DNA of 55,608 bases from Candidatus Wolfebacteria bacterium GW2011_GWE2_44_13. Its GTDB lineage: Bacteria > Patescibacteriota > Minisyncoccia > UBA6257 > UBA9933. Each line of letters starts with the position of its first letter. The stretch's first letter is position 1. The DNA lies in NCBI GenBank assembly GCA_001000675.1, contig LCHW01000001.1:160686-216293 (forward strand). The letters run 5' to 3'. The notes beneath the pieces are model-generated. The model worked only from the letters and a program-made list of their open reading frames with translations. It searched no databases and was not told where the DNA came from. This document shows positions 2,098 through 51,706 of this stretch, piece by piece. The position numbers and the translations under genes were made by a program.

Positions 2098-2220
2098 AAA
2101 ATACGTGAGATTTGCGAACTACTTTGTTGCGGGCCCCTGCCGGTGCGGTCGATGTGCGAATAGCACACCTTCCTTGCCGGCATTCCCGCGCCGTGTATTT
2201 CATCAAATCTCACGTATTTT
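2098..2220 (+). repeat. 123-nt imperfect-palindrome intergenic element, copy A (rpsB|tsf)
   Basis: A perfect 17-bp closing stem, AAAATACGTGAGATTTG (2098-2114) with CAAATCTCACGTATTTT (2204-2220), encloses nested helices GCGGG/CCCGC, TGCCGG/CCGGCA and GTGC/GCAC. It is homologous to the copies at 43358-43480 and 51583-51706. Confidence 0.7.
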
Positions 2221-3329: not shown

Positions 3330-3413
3330 GGGTGGGTAGTCCCGTAGGGGCCGGGAGCAGACTGTAAATCTGTCAGGCATGTACTCGCGTGAGTTCGACT
3401 CTCACCTCACCCA
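3330..3413 (+). tRNA. tRNA-Tyr (anticodon GTA), long variable arm
   Basis: Acceptor GGGTGGG/CTCACCC. Anticodon stem CAGAC/GTCTG-like with loop CTGTAAA. T-arm GTGAG-TTCGACT-CTCAC. The layout parallels E. coli tRNA-Tyr. No encoded CCA. Confidence 0.9.
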
Positions 3414-3430
3414 CACTAAGTTCACCCGTC

Positions 3431-3459
3431 TTGCGGATTTCGAATTTGGTGGTTATAAT
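3431..3459 (+). promoter_or_regulatory. sigma70-like promoter upstream of tRNA-Thr
   Basis: TTGCGG (3431-3436), 17-nt spacer, TATAAT (3454-3459). Confidence 0.45.
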
Positions 3460-3485
3460 GCATAAGTTCAATTCGAGTACCTAGC

Positions 3486-3558
3486 GCCGATGTAGCTCAG
3501 TTGGTAGAGCAGCTCCATGGTAAGGAGCAGGTCGAAGGTTCAAATCCTTTCATCGGCT
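3486..3558 (+). tRNA. tRNA-Thr (anticodon GGT)
   Basis: Acceptor GCCGATG/CATCGGC. D-arm TAGCTCAGTTGGTAGAGC. Anticodon loop ATGGTAA. T-loop GGTTCAAATCC. Confidence 0.9.
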
Positions 3559-3576
3559 CATTTTTTTTCAGAATTG

Positions 3577-3649
3577 GCCACCTTAGCTCAGTTGGTAGAG
3601 CAACGGTTTTGTAAACCGTAGGTCCGCGGTCCGAATCCGCGAGGTGGCT
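3577..3649 (+). tRNA. tRNA-Thr (anticodon TGT)
   Basis: Acceptor GCCACCT/AGGTGGC. D-arm TAGCTCAGTTGGTAGAGC. Anticodon stem ACGGT/ACCGT with loop TTTGTAA. T-loop GGTCCGAATCC. Confidence 0.9.
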
Positions 3650-3655
3650 CAAAGG

Positions 3656-3684
3656 TTGCAAAATGTAAAGAACCGTGATATATA
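3656..3684 (+). promoter_or_regulatory. candidate promoter for rpmG
   Basis: TTGCAA (3656-3661), 17-nt spacer, TGaTATATA extended -10 (3676-3684). The predicted +1 is about 3 nt before the rpmG ATG. Confidence 0.4.
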
Positions 3685-3693
3685 ATAAAGACT

Positions 3694-3864
3694 ATGGCGA
3701 AATCAAAGCTGAAAGAACAACTAACCCGACTGCGCTGTGCAACGTGTAAGCACGTTAATTATCACACTCGGAAGAACAAGAAATCTGTTTCCCGCAAGAT
3801 CGAACTGAACAAGTTCTGTGATTGGTGCAGAGTCCACACGACGCACAAGGAAGCAAGAAAATAA
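3694..3864 (+). CDS. rpmG: 50S ribosomal protein L33
   Basis: 56-aa ORF, absent from the ORF track because it is under 60 aa: MAKSKLKEQLTRLRCATCKHVNYHTRKNKKSVSRKIELNKFCDWCRVHTTHKEARK. It has the CxxC...CxxC zinc-ribbon and a basic L33 signature. Its position in a tRNA-Thr/Trp cluster is the classical context. Confidence 0.9.
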   Translation: MAKSKLKEQLTRLRCATCKHVNYHTRKNKKSVSRKIELNKFCDWCRVHTTHKEARK

Positions 3865-3941
3865 GTAAGTTTATTTATTGCATAAACAATGCGCCACAAG
3901 TATACTGTATATGCTTTTGGCGCATTTTTTATAAACATAAC

Positions 3942-4012
3942 GGGGGATTAGTTAAATGGTATAATTTCTCTCTCCAAAAGAGAAGTCGAGGGTCCGATTC
4001 CTTCATCCCCCG
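3942..4012 (+). tRNA. tRNA-Trp (anticodon CCA)
   Basis: Acceptor GGGGGAT/ATCCCCC. Anticodon stem TCTCT/AGAGA with loop CTCCAAA. T-loop GGTCCGATTCC. Confidence 0.9.
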
Positions 4013-4626: not shown

Positions 4627-6642
4627 ATGAACCGAAAAGCCTATACATCTGAAGATTTCGCATGGGTCAACTGGACTCCTGAGATAATCAAACAAAAAAT
4701 AAACGAAGCAATCGAAGCGAAAAAAGTTTGCTATGCAGTCATAAAAGCGATCGCGCCGAGCGAGCGAACATTTACCAATACTGTGTTTGCGATTGAATCA
4801 TCCGAGTACGAACATATCGATGCTATTGCGCAGGTAGAGTTTTTGATGCATGTAAGCCCGTTGGCCGAAGTGCGTGACACTGCGCAAGAAATGGTAGATG
4901 TCTTGCAAAAGGCAATAGTGGATATTGAATATGATCCAGATATGTATCGAGCGATGCAGGAGTATGCGGCCAAGGATGACTTATTGGTGGGAGCTGACAA
5001 GGAACTGTTTGATGACATGATGCGTACATATAAACGTATGGGGTTTGTTCTCGAACCTGAAAAGCAGCAAACACTTAAAGACAATCTTAAAGAAATAGCT
5101 GAGCTTGCGACTGGGTTTGAAAAAGCGATCGCCGATCATCAGGACCATATTGTAGTCCGCAAAGAGGAGTTGCGCGGCTTGCCAGAGGCATATATTAATG
5201 GATTGAAACAAGATGAAGAAGGCAATTATATTGTTACCCTTGCCTATCCCGACTATATTCCTTTTTCCGAACGATGTGATTCTGCACCACGAAGAAAGGA
5301 ACTGATTGATAAGTTTAATCGCCGAGGAGGACCGGCAAATATCGAACGCCTTAAGCGTATTCTTGAGTTGCGGACGGAAAATGCAATGGTATTGGGATAT
5401 CCGAATCACGCTGCCTTTAAGCTGGAAGACCGTATGGCAAAAACAGTGGAAATGGTTACGGAATTTTATAAGGATTTACAGAAAATAGTAACGAACCCAG
5501 CAAAGCTCGATTTGCAGCTGCTCGCTGAAATGAAAAAGAAGGAGCTGGGCGATTCATCTGCGCGTCTTGCGTATTATGATATTGGTTACTATATTCAGCG
5601 CGATAAGATGCAGGGATATGCAGTTGATGATGAAGTGACTCGAGAATATTTTCCACTCGAACGAGTGCTCGATACGATGTTCGATTTGTATGCGTCTGTT
5701 TTAGGGCTGCAATTTGTACGTGAGAACTTCCCTGCATGGCACGAGAGCGTATTGTGGTATCGCGTTGACAATGCTAATGGATCTCTTGTCGGCTATTTTT
5801 CGCTCGACCTGTTTCCTCGGGAAGGGAAGTATGGGCATGCAATGATGCATCCCCATGTCCAAGGACGGCGTGCTTCACGGGAGCTTGATGCGCCGTATGT
5901 AACGCCGACGTGCGGAGTGGTTGCGAATTTCAATCCTTCCTCAGGGACTACGCCTTCGTTGTTAAGTCACAACGAAGTGCAAACGCTATTTCATGAATTC
6001 GGCCATGCTATGCATTCGCTTGTAACAACTGCTGTGCATATGTCACAAGCGGGAACAAATACTGCTCGGGATTTTGTTGAAGCCCCTTCGCAAATGTTTG
6101 AATATTGGGTTTGGGAGCGAGAGATCCTTAAAAAAATGTCAAAGCACTATGTGACTAGCGAGCCATTGCCGGACGAGCTTATTGATCGTATGATTCGTTC
6201 AAAAAATCATGCGCAAGGATATTCTATCTTGCGACAGTTGTTTCTTGGTTCGCTGGATATGACGTTTCATACAGCAACGGAGCCAATTGACCCTGTTGCT
6301 GTGTATGCCGATTTATATAAACAGATGTTTGAGCTTGAACCTGCGCAAGATCAGCTATGGCCTGCTGGTTTTGGGCATTTAATGCACTATGACGCGGGCT
6401 ATTACGGCTATTTATGGTCCGAAGTGTATGCTGCTGATATGTTCGCTCGATTCCGCACAGAGGGTGTTATGAGCCCTACAATCGGCATGGAATATCGTAA
6501 GAAAATTCTCGAAGTTGGTTCAAGCAGGGACGAAATGGAATCAGTAAAGGATTTCCTTGGGCGTATGCCAAATCACAAAGCATTTCTTGCGGATATGGGT
6601 TTAGCGTCTCATGATGAGAAGGGAGGAGAGGCAAGTGAATAA
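4627..6642 (+). CDS. M3-family zinc oligopeptidase (thimet oligopeptidase / Dcp / oligopeptidase A-like)
   Basis: 671-aa ORF with the HEFGH zinc motif (TLFHEFGHAMHS), a downstream glutamate region (FVEAPSQMFEYW), and the GYYGYLWS block typical of M3A. Confidence 0.9.
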   Translation: MNRKAYTSEDFAWVNWTPEIIKQKINEAIEAKKVCYAVIKAIAPSERTFTNTVFAIESSEYEHIDAIAQVEFLMHVSPLAEVRDTAQEMVDVLQKAIVDIEYDPDMYRAMQEYAAKDDLLVGADKELFDDMMRTYKRMGFVLEPEKQQTLKDNLKEIAELATGFEKAIADHQDHIVVRKEELRGLPEAYINGLKQDEEGNYIVTLAYPDYIPFSERCDSAPRRKELIDKFNRRGGPANIERLKRILELRTENAMVLGYPNHAAFKLEDRMAKTVEMVTEFYKDLQKIVTNPAKLDLQLLAEMKKKELGDSSARLAYYDIGYYIQRDKMQGYAVDDEVTREYFPLERVLDTMFDLYASVLGLQFVRENFPAWHESVLWYRVDNANGSLVGYFSLDLFPREGKYGHAMMHPHVQGRRASRELDAPYVTPTCGVVANFNPSSGTTPSLLSHNEVQTLFHEFGHAMHSLVTTAVHMSQAGTNTARDFVEAPSQMFEYWVWEREILKKMSKHYVTSEPLPDELIDRMIRSKNHAQGYSILRQLFLGSLDMTFHTATEPIDPVAVYADLYKQMFELEPAQDQLWPAGFGHLMHYDAGYYGYLWSEVYAADMFARFRTEGVMSPTIGMEYRKKILEVGSSRDEMESVKDFLGRMPNHKAFLADMGLASHDEKGGEASE

Positions 6643-6678
6643 AAAACAGCAGGAGATTTTTCTCCTGCTGTTTTTTTA
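6641..6678 (+). terminator. rho-independent terminator
   Basis: ACAGCAGGAGA-TTTT-TCTCCTGCTGT, then a T7 run. Confidence 0.85.
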
Positions 6679-6705: not shown

Positions 6706-8430
6706 ATGGCATCCCTTAAATATATTTTTGTAACAGGAGGAGTAATGTCGGGAGTTGGCAAGGGCGTTGCTGCTGCATCCATTGCAAAGATTCTTCAAGC
6801 GAAGGGCTTTTCTGTCACCGCTATCAAGATTGACCCGTATGTAAACGTAGACGCGGGGACAATGAACCCCACCGAGCATGGTGAGGTTTTTGTTTTGGAT
6901 GACGGCATGGAGTGCGATCAAGACATGGGGAACTATGAGCGCTTTTTGAATAGAAGTCTCTCAAGTGCCAACTATATGACTACAGGAAGTGTATACTTGT
7001 CGCTTATCAATAGAGAGCGTAGTTTGGAATTTGAAGGAAAATGCGTTGAAGTTGTGCCGCATGTGCCGCTTGAAGTTATTGATCGTATTAATACGGCTGC
7101 GAAAAAAGAAAAAGCAGATATTGTTATTATTGAAGTGGGTGGAACGGTTGGAGAATATCAGAATGTATTGTTTCTCGAAGCAGTGCGTATGATTAAAGCA
7201 AAGCGTCCCGAAGATGTTGCATTGGTATTAGTAAGCTATCTACCGCAACAAGGAGCTGAAGGTGAATTAAAGACAAAGCCAACGCAGTACGCAGTGCGCA
7301 CGCTTAACTCTGCGGGGTTGCAGCCGGATGTTATTTTGGCACGTGCAGGTATTGCGCTTGATAAACCGCGAAAAGAAAAGATTGCATTTAATTGTAATCT
7401 TGATAATGAAGCTGTCATATCTGCGCCTGATGTAAAAAGCATTTATGATGTGCCTTTGAATTTTGAACATGATAACTTGAGCGGCATCTTAATGAAGCGC
7501 TTAAAGTTGAAGCCTAAGAAGCATGACTTGAAAGAGTGGAAAGCGTTTGTTGCAAAAACACATGCCGTTTCTAAGCCAGTGAAAGTTGGCATTGTAGGGA
7601 AGTATTTTGCAAGCGGAGAGTTTGTTCTTGCCGATTCATATATTTCTGTTATTGAAGCGGTAAAACATGCTGCCTATGCAGCGGGGCGCATTCCAGAAAT
7701 TACATGGCTGAATGCAGGAGATTTTGATCCGTTAGGCGTAGGAACGAAAGCGGCAAAAGATAATTTAAAATTATTAAAACGGTACGACGGTATTATCGTA
7801 CCAGGAGGTTTTGGAAATAGAGGTGTTGAGGGAAAGATTTCCGTGATTGGTTATTTACGCGAACATAAAATTCCATTCTTTGGATTGTGCTATGGTATGC
7901 AGTTGGCGACGATAGAATTTGCACGAAATGTTGCAGGTCTGAAAGGCGCACATACAACCGAAGTAGATAAAAAGGCTGTGCATCCCGTTATCGATATTCT
8001 ACCGGAACAGCGTCAAAAAATGGCTCAGAAAGATTATGGTGCAACTATGCGACTTGGAGCGTATCCTGCGGTTGTGGATAAAGGAACACATGCATATGCG
8101 GCGTACAAAGGGAGCCACTTCCAAACCGAGGGAACGAAGCGCAGGAAGGAGCAGAAGTTACAAATACCCGCTGATGAACTTATCGTGTTTGAGCGGCATC
8201 GACATCGATATGAGGTTAACCCCGTATATGTTGAGAAGCTTATCGATAAAGGGCTTGTGTTCTCGGGTATGTCACCCGATCGACGCTTAATGGAAATTGT
8301 TGAATTGCCGAAAGCAAAACATCCATTTTTCGTTGCGGCTCAGTTTCATCCTGAATTTACCGCGCGTCCGTTGGCACCCCATCCATTGTTTGTTGCTTTT
8401 GTAAAAGCAGCAATTGCGAAAAAGAAATAA
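6706..8430 (+). CDS. pyrG: CTP synthase
   Basis: 574-aa ORF. N-terminus KYIFVTGGVMSGVGKG, glutamine amidotransferase GLCYGMQ, and ERHRHRYEVN. Confidence 0.95.
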   Translation: MASLKYIFVTGGVMSGVGKGVAAASIAKILQAKGFSVTAIKIDPYVNVDAGTMNPTEHGEVFVLDDGMECDQDMGNYERFLNRSLSSANYMTTGSVYLSLINRERSLEFEGKCVEVVPHVPLEVIDRINTAAKKEKADIVIIEVGGTVGEYQNVLFLEAVRMIKAKRPEDVALVLVSYLPQQGAEGELKTKPTQYAVRTLNSAGLQPDVILARAGIALDKPRKEKIAFNCNLDNEAVISAPDVKSIYDVPLNFEHDNLSGILMKRLKLKPKKHDLKEWKAFVAKTHAVSKPVKVGIVGKYFASGEFVLADSYISVIEAVKHAAYAAGRIPEITWLNAGDFDPLGVGTKAAKDNLKLLKRYDGIIVPGGFGNRGVEGKISVIGYLREHKIPFFGLCYGMQLATIEFARNVAGLKGAHTTEVDKKAVHPVIDILPEQRQKMAQKDYGATMRLGAYPAVVDKGTHAYAAYKGSHFQTEGTKRRKEQKLQIPADELIVFERHRHRYEVNPVYVEKLIDKGLVFSGMSPDRRLMEIVELPKAKHPFFVAAQFHPEFTARPLAPHPLFVAFVKAAIAKKK

Positions 8431-15560: not shown

Positions 15561-15815
15561 GTGAGAAACAGAAAGCCACTCATAGTTCTTATCCTGGAGC
15601 GCATCGCCCTAAAGGCTCGGTGTGAATGTTCGACGCAAATTTTCGCCGAATTGTGTGACGACCTATTGTCGGCCGAAGAATTGACTGACGGGACTATTCG
15701 AGCCGATGCGGTTATACGGCTTGAGCGCATGATTAGTGAACTCAATCACCCGAGTGAGCAGATTGCAAAGACCCATTTGGAAAAAATCCGAAGGGAGATT
15801 GTCGATTTTTCGTAA
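15561..15815 (+). CDS. single-repeat member (paralog 3) of the same family
   Basis: GTG start with SD GGAGGA at 15551-15556. 84 aa: LILERIALKARCECST ... IRLERMISELNHPSEQIAKTHLEKI matches one repeat unit of paralogs 1 and 2. Confidence 0.6.
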   Translation: MRNRKPLIVLILERIALKARCECSTQIFAELCDDLLSAEELTDGTIRADAVIRLERMISELNHPSEQIAKTHLEKIRREIVDFS

Positions 15816-15836
15816 AAACCGCGCATTCTTGCGGAA

Positions 15837-15863
15837 AGCCCCTATCCTAGGGGCTTTTGTTTT
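15837..15863 (+). terminator. terminator of paralog 3
   Basis: AGCCCCT-ATCCT-AGGGGCT, then TTTGTTTT. Confidence 0.75.
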
Positions 15864-15891
15864 CGGACTTTATTCTTTGGGGCGGATGCAC

Positions 15892-15897
15892 TATACT
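15892..15897 (+). promoter_or_regulatory. -10 box placed for a leaderless parA mRNA
   Basis: TATACT, 6 nt (AAGCGC), then ATG at 15904. Confidence 0.4.
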
Positions 15898-15903
15898 AAG
15901 CGC

Positions 15904-16917
15904 ATGAGCAGGGTTATTGCGGTGTACAACCAGAAGGGGGGAGTTGCTAAAACGACGACGTGCGTTAACTTGTCCGCTTATTTAGCCTTAGAAGGAAAGA
16001 AGGTTTTGTTAATCGATTTTGATCCACAAGCCAATGCGAGCTCTGGACTCGGACACCCTGCAAAATTGAATGAAGGAAGTATCTATCACGGACTATTTGG
16101 CCTTGCTGAACCGGAGGCGCTTACAAAGCCGACTATTTTTTATAACTTCCATCTTATTCCATCGAGTCAGCATCTTGCGGGAGCGCTTATTGAATTAGTG
16201 AATATTCCTGAACGGGAATATAAGTTAAAACAGTTTATCGACAAGGTGCGTGATAAATATGATTATATTTTTATCGATATGCCGCCTTCTTTGAGTTTGC
16301 TCACAATCAATGGGCTTGTTGCTGCTGATGAAATTGTTATCCCTGTACAGAGCCATTACTTTAGTATGGAAGGGCTAAGCCAGTTACTTGAAATCATTGA
16401 ATTGGTCCATAAAAATATTTCAGAAAAGGGGTTAAAGATTGCAGGGGCGGTAATGACAATGTTCGATGAAAATGAACCGCTGTCCCATAAAATCGCTGAT
16501 GATATTGCAACTAATTTTCCGCATACTATTTTTAAAACACGCATCCCGCGATCCGCTGCACTTTCTGAGGCGCCGAGCTATGGACGTCCTGTTATTTTGC
16601 ATGATCCAAATTCTACCGGAGCACGTGCGTATGAACACCTTGCAAAAGAATTGATTGCGCAGGAAACAACGAGACAATTTCAAATGCCAAGCCAGATGAT
16701 GTCTGCGGCGCAAGCGGTACATAATGTGACTAGCGAGCAAGTACATCCATTACCAAACGAAGCCGATATTCTTATCGATATCAAAGTACCCACTCCACAG
16801 CCAGCTGCTCAACCGCAACCAGTAGCTAGTGGAGAAGAACCCGTTCGGCAAGCTCCCTTCGGCTCCGCTCAGGACAAGCAGGAAGAACCAATACACGACG
16901 ACGCTTTTTATTTTTAA
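15904..16917 (+). CDS. parA: ParA/Soj chromosome-partitioning ATPase with ~85-aa Pro/Gln-rich C-terminal extension
   Basis: MSRVIAVYNQKGGVAKTTT deviant Walker A, and DYIFIDMPPSL. The track ORF start 15736 overlaps the upstream gene and its terminator. ATG 15886 is an alternative start. Confidence 0.9.
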   Translation: MSRVIAVYNQKGGVAKTTTCVNLSAYLALEGKKVLLIDFDPQANASSGLGHPAKLNEGSIYHGLFGLAEPEALTKPTIFYNFHLIPSSQHLAGALIELVNIPEREYKLKQFIDKVRDKYDYIFIDMPPSLSLLTINGLVAADEIVIPVQSHYFSMEGLSQLLEIIELVHKNISEKGLKIAGAVMTMFDENEPLSHKIADDIATNFPHTIFKTRIPRSAALSEAPSYGRPVILHDPNSTGARAYEHLAKELIAQETTRQFQMPSQMMSAAQAVHNVTSEQVHPLPNEADILIDIKVPTPQPAAQPQPVASGEEPVRQAPFGSAQDKQEEPIHDDAFYF

Positions 16918-16920
16918 ACT

Positions 16921-18213
16921 ATGATAGGACACGGACTTAACTCATTGATACCGCCACGCGAGCCGCAAAAGCCAGCACCGGCAGAACCACAGACGGTTAA
17001 TCAGGCGCAGCAAGCGCCTATTCAACCTGTACCGCAAGCGCCTTCGGTTGTTGAGGTAATTCATGTAGATCGCGAACAACTGCGTGGCGATGAGCATTCA
17101 GAAATTGTTATTAAATCGATTAATGAAGCGACAGAGCATCCTCATGTTGTAGGTATTCAAGTTACTCCCGAAGAGCGTGAAGCGTTTTTACAAGAAGAAC
17201 GACGTGCGAATATTGTTGTTGATTCTGCGTATGACGTTGAGCAGCCTGATGTTGCTAGTATTGCTATATCGAGCCAGGATAGGGCTGACATTGCGCGTGA
17301 CGTCGCATATCATTCATTTGTGCATGATGAAGCAGAACTTGCTGCAACAAAGCGTGCCGTTGGGTTCTCGAAAAAGACAGCATTGCATGATGCCATTTTT
17401 CATATTGAAGTAGAAAAAATTAAACCAAATCCGTATCAGCCACGTAAGCATTTTGATGAAGATGCACTACGCGACCTTGCGCATTCTATTCGTGAATTCG
17501 GTATTTTGCAGCCACTCGTTGTTTCGAAAATAGAGACCGAATCGGAAAGTGGGACAAAAGTAGAATATCAGCTTATTGCAGGCGAGCGTCGATTAATGGC
17601 GTCAAAGCGTGCGGGGTTAGAGCGTGTGCCGGTTATTATCCGTCAGGCTGCGGAACGTGCTGAACAACTTGAACTTGCGATTATTGAAAACTTACAACGC
17701 GAAGATCTTGATACTATCGAAATGGCGCGTTCGTATGCGCGACTGCAGGATGAATTTGGTATGACGCAGCGTGAAATTGCTGCTCGCCTTGGGAAGAGCC
17801 GTGAAGTAATCGGTAACGCGTTGCGTTTGTTGAGTTTGCCAGTAGAGATTCAAGATTCGTTGTCCCACAATCAGATCAATGAGAGCCAAGCGCGATTGCT
17901 ATTGTCTATTCCTAATGTAACCGTACAAAAGCAACTGTTCGGAGACTTGCTTGCAAAAAGTTTCAGTGTGCGTGAGTTAAAGGCGAAGATTAAAAATATT
18001 CACAACCCACCGGAGATGCGGGAGCGTCCGACGTTTGGCGGACAGCAACAGACTGAAGATGCGGAAACGCGTGATCTACAGGGGAGGCTAAAAGATGTGC
18101 TAGGTACTGATGTAAAAATTGAACGTCGCGGAGAAAGTGGAAAAATTATCATCAACTTCTATTCTCCAGAAGAATTGTATGGAGTTGTGCGAAAGATAAA
18201 CCCGAGGGATTGA
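16921..18213 (+). CDS. parB: ParB/Spo0J with ~165-aa low-complexity N-terminal extension
   Basis: Carries KPNPYQPRKHFDEDALRDLAHSIREFGILQPLVV, LIAGERRLMASKRAGL (GERR box), and an HTH at MTQREIAARLGKSREVIGNALRLL. Confidence 0.9.
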   Translation: MIGHGLNSLIPPREPQKPAPAEPQTVNQAQQAPIQPVPQAPSVVEVIHVDREQLRGDEHSEIVIKSINEATEHPHVVGIQVTPEEREAFLQEERRANIVVDSAYDVEQPDVASIAISSQDRADIARDVAYHSFVHDEAELAATKRAVGFSKKTALHDAIFHIEVEKIKPNPYQPRKHFDEDALRDLAHSIREFGILQPLVVSKIETESESGTKVEYQLIAGERRLMASKRAGLERVPVIIRQAAERAEQLELAIIENLQREDLDTIEMARSYARLQDEFGMTQREIAARLGKSREVIGNALRLLSLPVEIQDSLSHNQINESQARLLLSIPNVTVQKQLFGDLLAKSFSVRELKAKIKNIHNPPEMRERPTFGGQQQTEDAETRDLQGRLKDVLGTDVKIERRGESGKIIINFYSPEELYGVVRKINPRD

Positions 18214-26795: not shown

Positions 26796-26828
26796 AAAAA
26801 CAGCTTATCAATTGATAAGCTGTTTTTT
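26796..26828. terminator. bidirectional terminator
   Basis: A-run, 22-nt perfect palindrome CAGCTTATCAATTGATAAGCTG, then a T6 run. It lies between rnpB (+) and the transporter gene (-). Confidence 0.85.
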
Positions 26829-29589: not shown

Positions 29590-29596
29590 TATCTAT

Positions 29597-29631
29597 AAAA
29601 AGCCCTGCACTTATTTGGTGCAGGGCTTTTT
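29597..29631. terminator. bidirectional terminator
   Basis: AAAAAGCCCTGCAC-TTATTTG-GTGCAGGGCTTTTT. Confidence 0.85.
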
Positions 29632-29643
29632 ATAGCGAATACC

Positions 29644-31858: not shown

Positions 31859-31910
31859 ATTAGTATGTGTGAATTCGTTTTTATGACTAGTTGGTATGTG
31901 TAGTGCTATT

Positions 31911-31919
31911 TGGTATCAT
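31911..31919 (+). promoter_or_regulatory. extended -10 placed for a leaderless glucan-synthase mRNA
   Basis: TGgTATCAT, 6 nt (GGTTCT), then ATG at 31926. Confidence 0.45.
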
Positions 31920-31925
31920 GGTTCT

Positions 31926-34900
31926 ATGAGCGGCAAGCGTATTGAACAATCACAGCTTCGCACGATCGATCGGTTAGCTAAAGAACTTTCATCAGTTACG
32001 CAACTTTCGTTCGATGGGCGAACGGCGCATGCCTTTTCTCGAGACGCAAAAGCGACCATCATCCGCATTCGGGCGATGTATCGATCGTTGACGGATAATT
32101 TTTCAAAAAATATTTATTTTACCCAGAGTATCGAATTGCTCCTGGATAATTTTCCGTACGTTATTGATAGCGCACTTACCGAGTTGCTTGAGCGATGGCA
32201 AGATCGCGAGACGATGCATATTCCACAAATGGTTGATCGCAATGGTAAAAAACGGCCGCGTGCATATTTGATTGCACACGCGCTGACGAGTGCTACCGAT
32301 GCAAATATTAATCGCGAATCCGTGCTTGCGTTTCTTGATAGTTATCAGCGAATGGCCCCGCTTTCTATTCGTGAACTCGATATTTTCCCGGACATGTTGC
32401 GATTTGTTCTGCTCGAAGAGACGCTACGAGTTATGCAAGCGACTCTTGATGCGTATCAGGAAATTGCTAATGCGGAAAAGTGGTTTATTCGTGTACTTAA
32501 TGCGGTGGATCGGCGGGAAAGTGATGAGCGGCTTACGCAACTCACAATCATGCTCGCGAAACAGTACACCGTTATCCCATTACATTTCAGCTTTCATTTA
32601 TTGCAACGTATCTCCCAGTCTGGCAAAGAAAAGGAGTTGCGTATTATGAGTAAGTGGCTCAAGTTAACGCTTGCGCGGCGTGGGTTTGGATATGCACGTC
32701 TCTCAAACTTAATTGTCCGCACTGATCGTGAACAGGCAGCTACGTTTAGCGCCGCTATTAATGCATTGCGTTGGCTCGCACAGATGCGATGGGATCGAGT
32801 CTCCGCGCCATTGAATGTTGTCGACGCAGTGTTGCGCCGTGACCCTGCGGAATGTTTTGAGCAGTTGTCTGATGAAACACTTGGACAGTATCGACGAGCC
32901 GTTGTGCGTATTGCTGGTAAAACGGGCGTGCATGATGTTGAAGTTGCTCGAGAAGCAGTGCGTTTTGCACGGCTCGCACAGGAGGATAGCGGGCAGCCAA
33001 AGCGACAATCCCATGTTGGGTATTTTCTTATTGACGAAGGCGTTATGGCGCTTGAACGAGCATTCGGATATCGTCCTACGATACGGGAACGGTTGCGGCG
33101 GTTCGTTCGTGCGCATGCGACACAGTTGTATTTAGGAGGGATTGCGTTCGTTACTGCATTGGTTGTATGTATTGTATTCCTATTGGGCGGAGGAGCGAGA
33201 ACACCGTGGTTCGTAGATCTACTATTATTCCTTGCAACAGTAGTGCTTGCTTCGGAAGTGGGGAGTGTGTGTATGCACTATCTTGCGGTACGTCTCTTGG
33301 AGCCGCGTGTACTTCCTTGTCTTAATCTTGAATCAGGCGTTGGGCCCGATCGACGAACACTGGTTGTTATGCCATCGATGTTGCGCAATTCGGAGTCAAC
33401 GCAACGGTTATTACGGAGACTTGAAACTAATTGTATCGCCAATGTCGATCCTGATGTGTTTTTTGTTGCGTTAATGGATTTTCGCGATTCGGTTGAAGAA
33501 TTTTCGGAGACAGACACAGCACTGGTTGCTGAATTTGCAGCGGGCATTGAGGAACTTAATGCGCGATACCCGTCCACCATTCCGCGTTTCGCGCTGTTTC
33601 ATCGCTATCGCAAATGGAATGTGGCGGAAAAAGTTTATATGGGGTGGGAGCGCAAGCGAGGGAAGCTGCGCGAGTTTAACGAGCTGTTGCGCGGAAAAGA
33701 AACGTCGTACGTGGAGGGGTCGCTTGAACGAGCAGCCCAGTTTGGCCATGTGCAGTATATTGTGACAATCGATGAAGATACCGAGCTCGTGCGTGATAGT
33801 GCAAGTATACTTATTGGTACAATCGACCATCCGTTGAATCGTCCGGTTATCGATCCTGATCGACGCGTGGTTACTCAGGGATATGGCATTATCGAACCAC
33901 GCCTTGCTGTGCGATTTAGCGAAGGAACCTCGTCGCTGTTTGCGCGTCTTTTTGGCGGTTTTCCAGGCATTGAAGCTTATTCGTCCTTCATATCCGACTT
34001 ACATCAAGACCTATTTGGCGAAGGTATTTTTCATGGAAAAGGAATCTATGATATCGACGCTGTTGAAGCGACGATGCGCGATCGTATTCCGGAGAACACG
34101 ATATTAAGCCATGACTTATTAGAGGGGCTCTATGCACGGGTTGGTCTTGCAAGCGGCGCACATATTCTTGAAGGGTTTCCTCAGGGCTACCATGAATATA
34201 TGAAGCGTGCTCATCGGTGGACGCGCGGCGATTGGCAAATCGCGCAGTGGGCGTTCACGCGCCGTGGTTGTGTATTTTCTGCAATTGGACGATGGAAGAT
34301 TTTTGATAATTTGCGCAGAAATATGCTTCCTATCGCACTTGTCGCTGTAGTTATGGCGACGCTGTTTTCTCACGCAGATGTATTTATATGGAGTGTTGTT
34401 GCACTCGGTTCACTTGGGTTTGGACAATTATTTCCGGCGTTAATTCATGCAATCATAACGGCAACTTCGCTTGATCGACGAACTGGTTTGTATTATCGGT
34501 TGCGAATCACGGGGGCTGCAATTGGTGTCGCGTTCATTAAGACGATCTTGTTGGGCGTATTTGCTTTGCACGCAACAGTTATTACACTCGACGCAATCAC
34601 GCGGAGTATGTGGCGTTTATTCATTTCGAAACGTAAATTGCTTGAGTGGCAGACGGCTTATGAAACTGCTGCTCGAGCACGAAAAGGTATTATGCATTTT
34701 ATTGGGTTTATGTGGCGCAGCACCACCATTTCATTTGTATTAATGATGCTCGTATTGTTTGCTCCGCATCCTGTGCTTGAACCGGTTACGTTGCTCTGGG
34801 CGATTGCGTGGCTTTCTGCACCTTTTGTTGCTCGCTTGATGAGCTACCGATTTATTCGATCAACTCGATTGCGTGCAAGCGATGCGCAGTACTTACGGGC

Positions 34901-42278: not shown

Positions 42279-43362
42279 AATCATCGACTCAATTAATCAG
42301 GAGTTTGCAACCATGTTTACGAGCGTTTCGCTCGCTGAACGTATTATGTTTGTGAAGCATATGTCCATGATGATCCACTCGGGCATGACCGAAGTGGAGA
42401 GCCTGCGCCTTATTCAAAGCCAAATTAAAAGCAAAGGGTTTTTGAAAATTCTCAATGAAGTTATTGTGGGTGTAGAAAACGGACAAGCACTCTCCACATC
42501 GCTCGCTCGGTATCGCGGCGTGTTCGGCGATCTTTTTATCAATATTATTAAGATTGGAGAAATCAGCGGAACGTTGTCCGAGAATCTTGATTATCTCGCA
42601 TTGGAAATGAAAAAGAATCAGTCGTTGCGATCAAAGGTTCGTGGGGCACTTATTTATCCGGCGGTTATTCTTGTCGCCACAGTAGGCGTTGTGGGTGGGT
42701 TGATTTTCTTTATACTTCCGAAAATCTTACCGATCTTCATTAATTTAAATGTAACGCTTCCTATTACAACTCGTATTCTTATTGCGTCGTCTGATGCATT
42801 GCGCGCGCATTACTTGCTTATTGGGCTTGCGTTCCTTGCACTTGTGGGTACGTTGCTTTTATTACGGCGTATTCCGGTAACAAAATATATTCTGCATCGC
42901 ATACTCCTTACGTTGCCCATCTTTGGTTCTATTTCTGTTGGGTTTAATATGGCAAACATGACTCGCATTTTGGGGATGCTTTTAAAGAGTGGAGAAAAGA
43001 TTGTACAAGCTGTTTCGATTACCGCCGATGCTTCGTCTAATATGGTGTACCGAAAAGCACTCCAAGAAGCTGTTGTTGAAATTCAAAAAGGGAAAACACT
43101 CTATGCGTATTTTGAAGAACATGAACGATTATTTCCGCCTACGGTTGGGCGCATGATTGAGGTAGGGGAGAAGACAGGAAACTTGGATAACAACCTCGCA
43201 TACCTTGCTGAATTTTATGAAAATGAAGTTGATGAAGTAACAAAGAATCTCTCGGGTATTCTCGAGCCGATTCTTTTGGTTGTTATGGGTGTTGCGGTTG
43301 GGTTTGTTGCGTTGGCTATTATTACGCCGATATATGGGATTACGCAGGGCCTTAACAAATAA
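42271..43362 (+). CDS. pilC: type IV pilus / T2SS platform protein (GspF/PilC family)
   Basis: 363 aa with two GspF-type repeats (GEISGTL, GEKTGNL) and 3 TM segments. It overlaps the pilB stop by 8 nt. Confidence 0.9.
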   Translation: MAKIIDSINQEFATMFTSVSLAERIMFVKHMSMMIHSGMTEVESLRLIQSQIKSKGFLKILNEVIVGVENGQALSTSLARYRGVFGDLFINIIKIGEISGTLSENLDYLALEMKKNQSLRSKVRGALIYPAVILVATVGVVGGLIFFILPKILPIFINLNVTLPITTRILIASSDALRAHYLLIGLAFLALVGTLLLLRRIPVTKYILHRILLTLPIFGSISVGFNMANMTRILGMLLKSGEKIVQAVSITADASSNMVYRKALQEAVVEIQKGKTLYAYFEEHERLFPPTVGRMIEVGEKTGNLDNNLAYLAEFYENEVDEVTKNLSGILEPILLVVMGVAVGFVALAIITPIYGITQGLNK

Positions 43363-43480
43363 TGTGTGAGTTGGCGAATCGGTGTGTTGTGGGTCCCCGT
43401 TGGCTCGGTCGCTGTATCATATATACAGTTCACTCGCCAACGTTCCCACGCCTTCCGCTTCATCCAACTCACGTATTATT
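43358..43480 (+). repeat. 123-nt imperfect-palindrome intergenic element, copy B (pilC|pseudopilin)
   Basis: 17-bp closing stem AATAATGTGTGAGTTGG / CCAACTCACGTATTATT with two G-U pairs. Nested helices are GTGGG/CCCAC, CGTTGGC/GCCAACG and CTGTAT/ATACAG. It overlaps the pilC stop codon. Confidence 0.7.
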
Positions 43481-49067: not shown

Positions 49068-49511
<444 letters not shown>

Positions 49512-49560: not shown

Positions 49561-49580
49561 TCCAATATAAAATTTAGTTT

Positions 49581-49642
49581 GTCATTCCCGCGGAGGCGGG
49601 AATCCAGTATCCCATAGATTCCCGCCTCCGCGGGAATGACAC
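49581..49642. repeat. two inverted copies of the GTCATTCCCGCGGAGGCGGGAATC unit
   Basis: The 24-nt unit at 49581-49604 and its exact reverse complement at 49618-49641 are separated by 13 nt. Each unit is itself a small hairpin. Confidence 0.8.
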
Positions 49643-51244: not shown

Positions 51245-51335
51245 CCATAGTAAATTAAAAAAATAATTAATAATTAAAAATAAAACAAAAATAGGGACGT
51301 AAAAGCACTATCCATTCCAAATATGTAATGACTAG

Positions 51336-51581
<246 letters not shown>

Positions 51582-51582
51582 T

Positions 51583-51706
51583 CAGAATTTGTGAATCTGG
51601 CGAGCTGCTATGTTGCCGACTACGTTTGCTTCCGCGAAGGAGGTTTACTCCATCTTGGTCGCAAGCCTCGTCGGCGCCTTGCATCTCATCCAGCTTCGCA
51701 AATCTG
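51583..51706 (+). repeat. 124-nt imperfect-palindrome intergenic element, copy C (atpE|atpF)
   Basis: Closing stem CAGAATTTGTGAATCTGG / CCAGCTTCGCAAATCTG (one bulge, one mismatch, G-U pairs). Nested helices are GCCGAC/GTCGGC, GTTTGC/GCAAGC and GGAG/CTCC. It shares the GTGA..GGCGA, TGTTG and GCGCCTT..CTCATCC motifs with copies A and B. Confidence 0.6.

Follow-up and report, generated by a model that had tools for sequence, protein, structure and literature searches.

Three palindromes at stop codons in a Candidatus Wolfebacteria genome belong to a small palindromic mobile-element family of many bacterial phyla

Three intergenic segments of a Candidatus Wolfebacteria genome, here called copies A, B and C, begin at or within a few nucleotides of the stop codon of the upstream gene, run in the direction of transcription and fold on themselves over their whole length. 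The question raised by this locus is what such an element is, how it came to lie between rpsB and tsf, and whether it acts on the operons in which it is found. The window (the whole stretch of DNA that was analysed, 55.6 kb) was searched with a covariance model built on the three copies (filters off), which matched only copies A, B and C, and a two-island pattern yielded three matches vs 0 expected. As described below, copies A, B and C are members of a small palindromic mobile-element family of many bacterial phyla.

Position and fold of the copies in the window

The coordinates of the copies, of the parts of copy A and of two empty sites are summarized in Table 1. The initial annotation had described three homologous segments of 123-124 nt, and its coordinates and lengths were reproduced: the three co-oriented copies measure 123, 123 and 124 nt (A, B and C, respectively), with a column identity of 77%. 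The flanking products are S2 and EF-Ts (copy A), T2SS-F and an N-methyl pilin-like protein (copy B), and ATP-synt_C and ATP-synt_B (copy C). The distance from the last base of the stop codon to the start of the element is +2 (A), -5 (B) and +1 nt (C), as measured from the covariance-model match starts 2097, 43358 and 51583.

Each copy is predicted to form a single long rod, with minimum free energies (MFE) of -59.7 (A), -53.2 (B) and -56.8 (C) kcal/mol. Compared with shuffled sequences the z-scores were -9.0 (A), -7.8 (B) and -6.9 (C), and equal stability was reached in 0/200 shuffles. The helices listed in the initial annotation (GCGGG/CCCGC, GTGGG/CCCAC, GCCGAC/GTCGGC and others) are present in the predicted folds, and its 17-bp closing stem is perfect in copy A; the terminal arms are complementary at 16/18 positions in copy B, and copy C is paired to its ends. 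The compensatory pairing that it had pointed out was also found, with double-sided changes at 20/42 consensus pairs among the three copies.

The copies are short and non-coding, no reading frame being conserved; this agrees with the size (~50-500 bp) and non-coding nature of MITEs, as do the complementary arms with their terminal inverted repeats. A hidden reverse-strand peptide (ATGAAGCGCAAGGCG start, 'MKRKA...') is open in copies A and B; it was rejected because copy C has a stop after 14 codons and the substitutions are patterned as in a stem. The rod is followed by a six-T run (A), by TTATTT (B) or by no T-run (C). None of the rods was called by a terminator scan that accepts only loops of 3-8 nt and is unfit for ~120-nt stems, for which a simple promoter/terminator scan is uninformative.

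Table 1. Coordinates of the palindromic copies, of the parts of copy A and of empty sites in the window
Feature	Coordinates	Strand	Remarks
Copy A	2098..2220	+	123-nt rod; rpsB stop codon 2092-2094 upstream, tsf start 2280 downstream
Copy A, outer stem, 5' arm AAAATACGTGAGATTTG	2098..2114	+	17/17 complementary to 2204-2220
Copy A, conserved 5' core block GCGAACTACTTTGTTGCGGG	2114..2133	+	Two-island pattern match; conserved across phyla, 48 copies
Copy A, variable apical helices and loop	2134..2184	+	Predicted fold, alignment
Copy A, conserved 3' core block CCCGCGCCGTGTATTTCATC	2185..2204	+	Contains G of invariant U.G pair
Copy A, outer stem, 3' arm	2204..2220	+	Terminal TTTT, then TT (six-T run)
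Copy B	43358..43480	+	Overlaps T2SS-F/pilC-like stop codon (43360-43362); ends 12 nt before prepilin-like ATG 43493
Copy C	51583..51706	+	Starts 1 nt past atpE stop codon (51579-51581); atpF start 51765
Empty site, rpmG stop codon and following bases	3862..3876	+	rpmG (bL33) 3694-3864
Empty site, atpB|atpE spacer	51245..51356	+	Family member in L243, L245, L247

Family anatomy, distribution and mobility

A covariance-model search, which the initial annotation had proposed, and a pattern scan revealed full-length relatives (model positions 1-124) in at least nine taxonomic groups, i.e., Wolfebacteria, Saccharibacteria, Zambryskibacteria, Methylophilaceae, Gallionellaceae, Nitrosomonas, Halomonadaceae, Opitutales and Porphyromonas; the family ranges over CPR, Bacteroidota, Proteobacteria and Verrucomicrobiota. 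Common to all copies is an asymmetric core of ~45 nt (5' GCGAAyyGCUGUGUUGC, 3' GCGCCUUGCryUUCAUC), in which the helices GG/CC, GAA/UUC, yGC/GCr and G-U/G-C are separated by fixed small internal loops. Columns 36/108 form a U.G pair in 48/48 copies, and the asymmetries of the core (bulges, a 3x3 loop and the U.G pair) are fixed across phyla. Sequence changes are frequent in the apical hairpin and in the outer stem, which nevertheless keep their pairing, the outer stem being the most variable segment of the family (21-64% identity among the Wolfebacteria copies, each still paired). Across phyla, the sequence islands that had been noted as conserved are better delimited as GCGAAyyGCTGTGTTGC and GCGCCTTGCryTTCATC; GTGAG is part of the variable outer stem and lacks conservation in the family as a whole.

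Pairing statistics were determined from a structure-blind MAFFT alignment of 48 copies. Paired cells amounted to 93.5% vs 71.6% in shuffles (the value was reached in 0/500) and to 33-50% when the partners were slid. The covariation score was 0.58 vs 0.17, and double changes were seen at 15/20 pairs; columns 29/115 hold CG in 24 copies, UA in 20, AU in 3 and GC in 1, with none broken. The rod architecture recurs in folds computed independently for separate copies, and the core was found on at least three different end types. Since the Wolfebacteria copies are mosaics of one another, some of the compensatory changes may stem from recombination and not from stepwise selection. The Rfam scan that had likewise been suggested matched no family: Rfam 15 at gathering score had no match in the window or in the loci of ten relatives, and a permissive search found nothing relevant for copy A (to E = 10) or for six loci (to E = 1), the best hit being sX9 with E = 0.27. 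No common neighbouring gene was found in the single-copy genomes, in which an ABC transporter, cobW, FAD monooxygenases and uvrC/pgsA were seen.

Related Wolfebacteria differ in the presence or absence of the element at eight loci (rpsB, rpmG, pilC, two pilins, atpB, atpE and one unnamed), with filled and empty sites between genomes whose proteins are 87-100% identical; dispersed multiple copies that are present or absent between related genomes are a feature of MITEs. Copy A has an ortholog at the same locus of Ca. Wolfebacteria CP011209 (L040 3357-3479), from which it shows ~11 differences (~91% identity in the element, with flanking genes ~80% identical); these are located in loops or represent one G-C to A-U double change and one wobble, and no Watson-Crick stem pair is lost. 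The rpsB copy is absent from the sister genomes L125/L127. An ortholog of copy B is found behind pilC (L245 703-825) and orthologs of copy C behind atpE in L243, L244, L245 and L246, and the atpE junction is empty in L247 (spacer 13 nt). The rpmG site, empty in the window, is filled at the exact point in L040 (5998-6121), L125 (7511-7634) and L127 (7383-7506), with an identical L33 protein. The atpB|atpE spacer of L244 holds an internally deleted remnant of a family member. The idea that the outer stem was an older gene terminator which received the core was rejected; no matching hairpin occurs at the empty sites (rpmG and atpB ends of the window; L246, L247), and the outer stem therefore arrives with the element.

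Close structural relatives in Porphyromonas and in the MAG binchicken_co117_2 are textbook MITEs. In 53 Porphyromonas-group copies the rod lies inside a 175-bp unit which starts with GAGACTGTTGCA, ends with TGCAACAGTCTC and is bordered by clean 5-bp direct repeats of varied sequence. These inverted ends of the rod-carrying Porphyromonas MITE are of the ISPg4 type (IS5 family) and equal those tabulated for ISPg4 and MITE464 (PMC4596501, Table 2). The unit in binchicken_co117_2 has 13-bp inverted ends and 5-bp duplications. Given the inverted ends and 5-bp target duplications of the Porphyromonas MITE, the family is mobile. The earlier argument that covariation speaks against a MITE fails on these relatives, and on copies that come and go and are mosaic.

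The ISPg4-type 12-bp ends (GAGACTGTTGCA / (C/T)GCAACAGTCTC) are absent from the window copies and were found only in the Porphyromonas-group relatives; the terminal sequences of the window copies are AAAATACGTGAG..., AATAATGTGTGAG... and CAGAATTTGTGAA.... Around bare rods, including the window copies, no consistent direct repeat of 2-5 bp was detected, the one clean case being TAAA in L243; other duplication candidates are self-complementary tetramers inside stems, and TA/TAA flanks are indistinguishable from extra stem pairs. As had been noted initially for the window, no transposase domain was recognisable among the window ORFs scanned. In a search of ~1 Mb of loci for a parent insertion sequence bounded by the two halves of the core, no split halves around an ORF were found. 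In viral contigs most single-half matches were at chance level and whole rods occurred only in L180 and L211. The plasmid collection contributed one copy, from Nitrosomonas, which sits in an unannotated gap and has no transposase ORF beside it. Among Proteobacteria, copies that end in GGGAARCGCTG are found in both orientations and have TTAA or CTAR at either flank.

Position rule and candidate role at the cistron boundary

In several lineages the rod obeys a near-absolute rule: it follows a stop codon directly and points the same way as the gene. This agrees with the siting described initially for the window: in Wolfebacteria all loci (8/8) are in gene orientation and -6 to +9 nt from the stop codon, even where 60-500 nt of free spacer are present. 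A long co-oriented ORF ends at most ~20 nt from the 5' end of 26 copies (most at -9 to +2), and ~5 copies show the opposite arrangement of ORF and rod. Two copies of Saccharibacteria L077 are oppositely oriented beside same-strand genes, and both orientations are seen in Proteobacteria and Porphyromonas. Immediately 5' of the rod stands TAA (or TGA/TAG), including cases in which the triplet is no real stop codon, as in copy A (after TAAGTTAA) and in the L245 atpB copy (after TAAGTGTAA). The genes preceding the Wolfebacteria copies mostly code for abundant products (S2, L33, ATP synthase a and c, pilins). The suggestion that the copies separate genes with different expression levels fits such abundant upstream products (rpsB, atpE, atpB, rpmG and the pilins); pilC does not obviously conform.

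The reading preferred here, with a probability of about 0.5, is that of a MITE-like element which carries a conserved, structured cargo and is kept as an intercistronic hairpin. The element consists of a variable paired outer stem, the conserved asymmetric core and a variable apical hairpin. In some lineages the rod is carried inside transposase-driven MITE shells (ISPg4/IS5-type ends in Porphyromonas, other ends elsewhere); in Wolfebacteria and a number of further lineages it is found bare, and then nearly always directly 3' of a stop codon and oriented with the gene, a position that may be reached through target choice or through selection. Copies A, B and C would be insertions behind rpsB, pilC and atpE, and are probably co-transcribed with their operons. 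The long hairpin could act on the transcript in one or several ways, as a 3'-end barrier to exonucleases, as an RNase III-type processing site or as a structure opened by the terminating ribosome, and each of these actions would uncouple the fates of the upstream and downstream cistrons. From the sequences we infer a role at the RNA level at the cistron boundary, with the conserved core probably shaping the mRNA between the genes. Correia and ERIC repeats are co-transcribed and change mRNA processing and stability, and REP hairpins up to 15 nt from a stop codon are said to affect translation, as reportedly seen by Liang, Rudd and Deutscher in 2015.

Covariation for a conserved fold, as expected of a cis-acting structured RNA feature, was found in the 48-copy alignment. 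A strand-specific wobble signature (G.U tolerated and A.C avoided on the transcribed strand) was not found in 56 copies. The antisense folds are more stable by a mean of 3.6 kcal/mol, and are the more stable ones in 40/56 copies. The MFE folds contain 178 G.U pairs in the sense vs 140 in the antisense strand, and the invariant U.G, at one pair for each copy, should account for 56 of those in the sense strand; with this pair set aside, G.U is no commoner on the sense strand. Asymmetric features are limited to the fixed U.G pair and the orientation rule. As there is no sense bias in wobble or stability, the pairing constraint looks strand-symmetric, as for a DNA-level palindrome or templated inter-arm repair.

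Wobble usage without strand bias would suit DNA that is selfish throughout, devoid of a function for the host or as RNA, in which the rod would be the cis part of a transposon, i.e., a hairpin (ssDNA or cruciform) needed by the mobilising enzyme; pairing would be kept by this need or by intra-strand template switching between the arms, and the stop-codon sites would result from a TA/TAA-type target and from genes being left intact. The clear MITE behaviour of the relatives, presence/absence and mosaicism in sister genomes, the TAA-type 5' flank even at triplets that are no actual stop, the Proteobacterial copies with GGGAARCGCTG ends and TTAA/CTAR flanks in both orientations, and the L244 remnant, which resembles a shortened, 'perfected' palindrome, argue in the same direction. 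However, arm-to-arm copying would erase the core asymmetries that are fixed across phyla, a conserved core with wholly different termini (at least three end types) is the reverse of transposase end recognition, and a symmetric TA/TNA target cannot give 8/8 co-orientation. Neutral 123-nt inserts in the rpsB-tsf and atp operons, with stems spared by divergence, are moreover unexpected in streamlined CPR genomes, and selfish DNA without a function is regarded as possible, if doubtful.

Extrahelical bases and a G.T pair in a folded single strand are what HUH- or recombinase-type enzymes recognise, and the folded strand of the rod would suit such enzymes. A strand-specific element moved as ssDNA, in the manner of IS200/IS605-PATE, REP-RAYT or attC, would insert 3' of a T-R-A target with no duplication, and it would run with the genes only because it runs with replication. 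This is consistent with bare rods that have no detectable target duplication, with the constant TAA/TGA/TAG 5' flank and with the fixed orientation; genes lie nearly all on one strand in the window and in L245, and parAB is located in the window, so that the directions of replication and transcription are inseparable here. Movement of this kind is nevertheless held to be improbable: none of the ORFs scanned in the window was recognisable as an HUH, RAYT or integrase gene, the known kinds have two short subterminal hairpins or palindromes of 20-40 nt and not one 120-nt rod, the relatives with inverted ends and 5-bp duplications use a different chemistry, and the two opposite copies of Saccharibacteria L077 lie beside same-strand genes. 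Conservation of core sequence and loops across phyla, helices that covary between invariant nucleotides, the invariant U.G pair, sense orientation as the rule in Wolfebacteria and the occurrence of one core in different mobile shells could also be accounted for by a structured RNA class in its own right, either a self-cleaving ribozyme or a site bound by some universally conserved factor, which would be the primary functional unit and would have been captured by MITEs only secondarily. This is judged very improbable in view of the Rfam result, the wobble pairs without strand bias, the two orientations in Proteobacteria and Porphyromonas, the lack of a recognisable catalytic-core motif and of a common neighbouring gene.

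A more far-reaching reading appears unlikely. In it, the core would be a portable cross-phylum RNA/ssDNA module that interacts with universal host machinery, e.g., RNase III, the terminating ribosome or RNA polymerase; bare rods would be targeted to the nucleotide next to a stop codon, oriented with the gene, through a mechanism so far undescribed for bacterial mobile DNA, and the core would have been captured repeatedly by different transposons for neutralising polar damage in operons.

Comparison with known systems

A literature search by keywords and literal sequences, with incomplete coverage, found no description of the palindrome family, and an earlier description is possible. Integron attC sites (e.g., the 123-126-bp Vibrio cholerae repeats) are imperfect palindromes at, or overlapping, the stop of the preceding ORF and in its orientation; their structure is conserved over sequence, and they work as a folded single strand. 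The rods resemble them in length, stop-codon abutment and gene orientation. An assignment to attC was rejected, as the rods have no RYYYAAC / GTTRRRY end sites and are found in core operons (rpsB-tsf, atp, pil) instead of cassettes; among the ORFs scanned in the window, an integrase was not seen.

The Correia elements (CREE/NEMIS) of Neisseria are palindromic MITEs of 100-155 bp that lie between genes and are transcribed together with them; the resulting hairpin RNAs serve as substrates of RNase III and change mRNA stability. By description they are set apart by conserved 26-bp inverted ends, a TA duplication and restriction to one genus, whereas the rods have variable ends and a conserved interior. 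ERIC/IRU elements of Enterobacteriaceae and Yersinia are ~127-bp imperfect palindromes, transcribed and intergenic, with orientation-dependent effects on flanking mRNA. The likeness to ERIC mentioned in the initial annotation is an analogy only; neither copy A nor the gammaproteobacterial Halomonas relative had a match in 5,426 complete E. coli genomes (blastn, word size 11), and membership was rejected on this lack of enterobacterial similarity. E. coli REPs past stop codons are said, after Stern in 1988 and Liang, Rudd and Deutscher in 2015, to protect upstream mRNA and, at up to 15 nt, to hinder terminating ribosomes. REPs are described as 20-40 nt long, with a GTAG or CGTC tag, and as moved by RAYT transposases (PMC3733652). 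The rods share with REP/BIME the location of palindromes a few nucleotides beyond stop codons; they were not assigned to this group, as they measure 123 nt, have no GTAG/CGTC tag at their ends and have no E. coli match.

The unit of the Porphyromonas uenonis group has the same 12-bp ends (GAGACTGTTGCA / TGCAAC(A/G)GTCTC) as MITE464/MITEPgRS and ISPg4 of P. gingivalis, whereas the window copies are without these ends. The bcr1 element of the Bacillus cereus group is a non-coding repeat of ~155 bp with 5-bp direct repeats, which is variable between close strains, is transcribed and keeps its RNA-level fold via compensatory base changes (PMC3184786). The present family is likewise a non-coding repeat whose presence varies between close relatives and whose fold is kept by compensatory changes; it differs in its range, from CPR to Bacteroidota, Proteobacteria and Verrucomicrobiota instead of one species group, and in its sequence-conserved core. 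To our knowledge, no stop-codon or orientation rule has been reported for bcr1.

If the core is RNA-active, it would offer a ready-made, host-independent 'cistron separator' for the study of uncultured CPR operons and as a synthetic-biology part, and if the position rule is mechanistic, it would point toward an unknown form of gene-end targeting. Most small palindromic repeats, such as REP, ERIC, Correia and bcr1, are confined to one lineage and characterised by their ends, whereas the present family is defined by a sequence-conserved structured interior which is found from CPR bacteria to Porphyromonas and Proteobacteria on at least three kinds of ends.

Rods of the window and the conserved core of the family

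The three intergenic repeats of the window (copies A, B and C; 123, 123 and 124 nt), described in the initial annotation as homologous rods at stop codons, proved real: column identity in their alignment was 77%, and a single long rod was predicted for each, with minimum free energies of -59.7, -53.2 and -56.8 kcal/mol and z-scores of -9.0, -7.8 and -6.9, respectively (equally good folds in 0 of 200 dinucleotide shuffles). The helices listed in that annotation were those of the predicted folds, and its compensatory changes held, with 20 of 42 consensus pairs altered on both sides and still paired. The flanking genes were confirmed by Pfam as S2 and EF-Ts (A), T2SS-F and N-methyl pilin-like (B), and ATP synthase c and b (C). 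By covariance-model starts, the rods begin at +2 (A), -5 (B) and +1 nt (C) relative to the final base of the preceding stop codon. A search of the window with the covariance model built from the three copies (filters off) returned only these rods, other weak matches being ordinary short hairpins.

A pattern built from two conserved islands matched the window three times (0 expected) and, over GTDB with one genome per species, gave more than 119 loci among the matches listed; among the pattern loci tested, 17 were chance matches and the remainder were real. The covariance model aligned end to end (positions 1-124) in CPR (Ca. Wolfebacteria, Saccharibacteria, Zambryskibacteria), one deltaproteobacterial MAG, Methylophilaceae, Gallionellaceae, Nitrosomonas (plasmid included), Burkholderiaceae, Comamonas, Halomonas, Billgrantia, Salinicola, Opitutales, many genomes of the Porphyromonas uenonis group, Hallella bergensis and Bacteroidales KA00251. 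The scope of the family is wider than was visible from the window sequence alone. The Rfam scan proposed earlier gave no matching family in Rfam 15 at any threshold tried, and a description of the family was not found in the literature searched by keyword and literal sequence.

Common to the family is an interior core, not the termini: the 5' half G-CGAAyyGCUGUGUUGC and the 3' half GCGCCUUGCryUUCAUC, forming four short helices with fixed small loops between them and a U.G pair in 48/48 copies. The apical hairpin and outer stem vary in sequence among copies and keep their pairing. In a MAFFT alignment built without structure information, 93.5% of cells were paired, compared with 71.6% after shuffling and 33-50% with partners slid by 1-3 columns, and clean covariation was seen at positions flanked by invariant nucleotides (e.g., CG 24, UA 20, AU 3, GC 1; 0 broken). 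Covariation at tolerated positions shows the functional state of the rod to be a hairpin, of RNA or of DNA, and not a pair of separate protein-binding sites.

Two IMG/VR 'viral' contigs have both core halves at normal spacing and therefore probably contain whole rods. A Methylotenera rod gave a sub-threshold Rfam match to the Xanthomonas sRNA sX9 (26.8 bits, E = 0.27), probably a likeness at the hairpin level only.

Coordinates of rods and other features (L-numbers are loci of related genomes; L040 is CP011209)
Feature	Locus	Position
Copy A, rpsB-tsf	window	2098-2220
Copy B, pilC-prepilin-like gene	window	43358-43480
Copy C, atpE-atpF	window	51583-51706
tRNAs around rpmG	window	3330-4012
rpmG	window	3694-3864
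Hairpin after rpmG	window	3882-3932
Gene-end hairpins	window	6641-6676, 26796-26827, 29593-29635
ParA- and ParB-like genes	window	15736-18213
2,932-codon ORF	window	31896-40694
N-methyl pilin-like gene	window	49068-49511
Perfect palindrome	window	49580-49641
rpsB-tsf spacer	L125	4739-5127
Hairpins of second family	L125	4746-5050
Mosaic rods	L127, L040, L125	7383-7506, 3357-3479, 7511-7634
Rod remnant, atpB-atpE	L244	1008-1090
Three tandem rods	L088	3897-4261
Probable rods in 'viral' contigs	L180, L211	~8249-8340, ~6491-6582 (minus strand)
sX9 match within a rod	L071	878-932
'Ends-only' unit	L020	1718-1737
'Ends-only' unit	L027	194-213
'Ends-only' unit	L044	4497-4516
'Ends-only' unit	L076	1340-1359
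'Ends-only' unit	L108	1167-1186

Placement and turnover among Wolfebacteria

Counted as loci, not copies, the Wolfebacteria rods occupy eight independent sites, all gene-oriented (8/8), their 5' ends falling between -6 and +9 nt of a stop codon; this rule is kept even where the spacer offers ~60 to ~500 nt of other room. The upstream genes are mostly those of abundant products (S2, L33, ATP synthase a and c, pilins). Of the bare or extended rods of all phyla, among the matches listed, 26 had a long co-oriented ORF ending at the 5' foot, vs ~5 with the opposite arrangement. In copy A (TAAGTTAA) and in L245, a CP011209-like locus (TAAGTGTAA), the real stop codon is followed a few nt later by a second TAA and then by the rod, which hints that the triplet itself, rather than translation termination, marks the insertion spot. 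Ordinary gene-end hairpins of this genome, three of which were noted in the window, have bidirectional-terminator shape (A-run, stem, loop, stem, T-run) and also begin at or on the stop codon; thus, stop-codon-abutting structures are the norm in this genome and not confined to rods. The type IV pilus/T2SS gene cluster is preceded by a single 2,932-codon ORF.

The window belongs to a 541-kb contig from Rifle groundwater. The closest named relative, Ca. Wolfebacteria GW2011_GWB1_47_1 (CP011209), with ~80% nucleotide identity over rpsB-tsf, has the copy A ortholog at the same site with ~91% identity within the element; the ~11 differences lie in loops, give one G-C to A-U double change or produce one U.G pair, without loss of any Watson-Crick stem pair. 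Copy A is missing from two sister genomes (L125 and L127) whose S2 proteins are 87-89% identical. Their rpsB-tsf spacer (~390 nt in L125) has at least five different, rod-unrelated hairpins, so palindromic inserts of various kinds appear to be drawn to this junction or tolerated there. The spacer of sister genomes (coordinates for L125) is filled by TGTCATTCCCG...GGGAATGACA-type hairpins, related to a perfect palindrome (arms of 25 nt, TGTCATTCCCGCGGAGGCGGGAATC / GATTCCCGCCTCCGCGGGAATGACA) downstream of an N-methyl pilin-like gene in the window; these are a second palindromic repeat family in Wolfebacteria, unrelated to rods, and their ATTCCC-N-GGGAAT layout recalls Neisseria dRS3 repeats.

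The rpmG (bL33) stop codon is immediately followed by a rod in three relatives, and the window site is empty despite an identical L33 protein. The window rpmG (56 codons, below the 60-aa ORF listing threshold) lies inside a tRNA cluster and is followed by a hairpin with 23-nt arms. Among the loci located through AtpF homologues (L243-L248), the 20-kb L245 has five rods, after pilC (copy B ortholog), two pilin genes, atpB and atpE (copy C ortholog); L243 has rods after atpB and atpE, L244 and L246 a full rod after atpE only, and L247 one after atpB only, with an atpE-atpF spacer of 13 nt. L248, from a more distant Parcubacteria genome, has no rod. After atpB, L244 also has a shortened, internally deleted remnant that the covariance model misses. 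The outer stem is retained, along with ~10 nt from the start of the 5' core, and the 3' side of the remnant has become exactly complementary to the 5' side, as expected for palindrome 'perfection' by template switching.

Wolfebacteria rods are mosaics in the multi-copy alignment. The L127 rpmG rod is closest to the CP011209 rpsB copy in its apical part (88%) and to the L125 rpmG copy in its core, and outer stems at one locus share only 45-55% identity, each still paired. Such patchwork suggests either that copies have recombined or converted one another, or that insertion has recurred at a given site.

Mobility, strand and proposed explanations

The rod family is mobile. In the Porphyromonas group, a 175-bp unit has the rod as its first 124 nt; 53 copies start with GAGACTGTTGCA, end with TGCAACAGTCTC and are flanked by varied 5-bp direct repeats, and the 12-bp ends are those that Table 2 of PMC4596501 gives for ISPg4 (IS5 family) and for MITE464/MITEPgRS of P. 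gingivalis. The MAG binchicken_co117_2 has six near-identical ~205-bp units with 13-bp inverted ends (CCCGGATCCGTCA) and 5-bp duplications. Rods of Nitrosomonas, Gallionella and Halomonas are extended by GGGAARCGCTG inverted ends with TTAA or CTAR flanks and are found both with and against the direction of adjacent genes. The same core is thus carried by at least three kinds of ends. The rods agree with MITEs in being short, non-coding, multi-copy sequences with inverted ends, present in some related genomes and absent from others, and the earlier argument against a MITE was wrong, given the inverted ends and 5-bp duplications of relatives. Around bare rods (copies without longer mobile-element ends), the TA/TAA flanks that might mark target duplications are equally readable as 2-3 extra stem pairs. 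A full-length insertion sequence with the core halves as its two ends was not found in the loci examined. The 20-bp 'ends-only' units of Porphyromonas (GAGACTGTTGCAAAAGTCTC) are two ISPg4-type inverted ends fused, some bordered by near-identical repeats of 5 bp; minimal MITEs and footprints of excision or deletion are both possible readings.

When both strands of 56 copies were folded, the antisense RNA was more stable in 40, and G.U pairs were not enriched on the sense strand once the invariant U.G was removed; a count of 93 vs 58 in favour of G.U is biased, since it came from a model-fitted alignment. Apart from the orientation rule, asymmetry is confined to the core, in its fixed internal loops and its U.G. 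Nearly all genes of the window and L245 are on one strand and parAB lies within the window, so co-orientation with transcription is inseparable from co-orientation with replication; the adjacent ParA- and ParB-like genes indicate that the window may be near the replication origin, which matters for telling the two directions apart.

Copies A-C are read, with a probability of about 0.5, as MITE-like elements with the conserved interior as cargo and a putative action of the rod, presumed to be co-transcribed, at the cistron boundary. The interior would behave like cargo carried by different mobile shells, and the Wolfebacteria copies persist only as sense-oriented, stop-codon-abutting inserts inside operons. 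At the boundary the rod might act as a barrier to 3' exonucleases, as a processing site of RNase III type, or as a structure with its foot within the region covered by a terminating ribosome. An RNA-level role is plausible by analogy, and a partner common to all hosts, for instance RNase III, might speculatively account for the cross-phylum core conservation. Purely selfish DNA landing on TA/TAA, its hairpin needed for movement or maintained by arm-to-arm template switching, would account for the symmetric wobble usage and the mosaic copies and leaves the conserved core asymmetries, the variable termini and the 8/8 co-orientation unexplained; it is the less likely reading. A DNA element moved as a single strand, with T-R-A as its target and without duplication, is distinctly improbable, and a primary structured RNA or ribozyme later acquired by MITEs even more so.

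Relation to known repeats

A cross-phylum conserved core on interchangeable ends, together with a strict stop-codon and orientation rule, is unusual and directly testable. The ends of ISPg4 are absent from the window copies. E. coli genomes carry ERIC and REP, and no similarity to the rods was found in 5,426 of them, which rules out membership in either; the earlier label of 'ERIC-like transcribed palindrome' was right in kind. REP membership is also ruled out by the lack of a GTAG or CGTC tag, and integron attC membership by the lack of attC core sites and cassette context. Effects of the proposed kind (exonuclease block, RNase III-type processing, interference with the terminating ribosome) are known from Correia, ERIC and REP elements. 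The bcr1 element is a transcribed repeat with a fold preserved by compensatory changes (PMC3184786). The tandem rods of an Opitutales MAG, three head to tail and 3 nt apart, resemble BIME-type clusters. The rod family belongs to none of bcr1, Correia, ERIC, REP and integron attC; it is like the transcribed palindromic repeats bcr1, Correia and ERIC in build and, by analogy, in putative working, and like REP hairpins and integron attC sites in its placement at stop codons.
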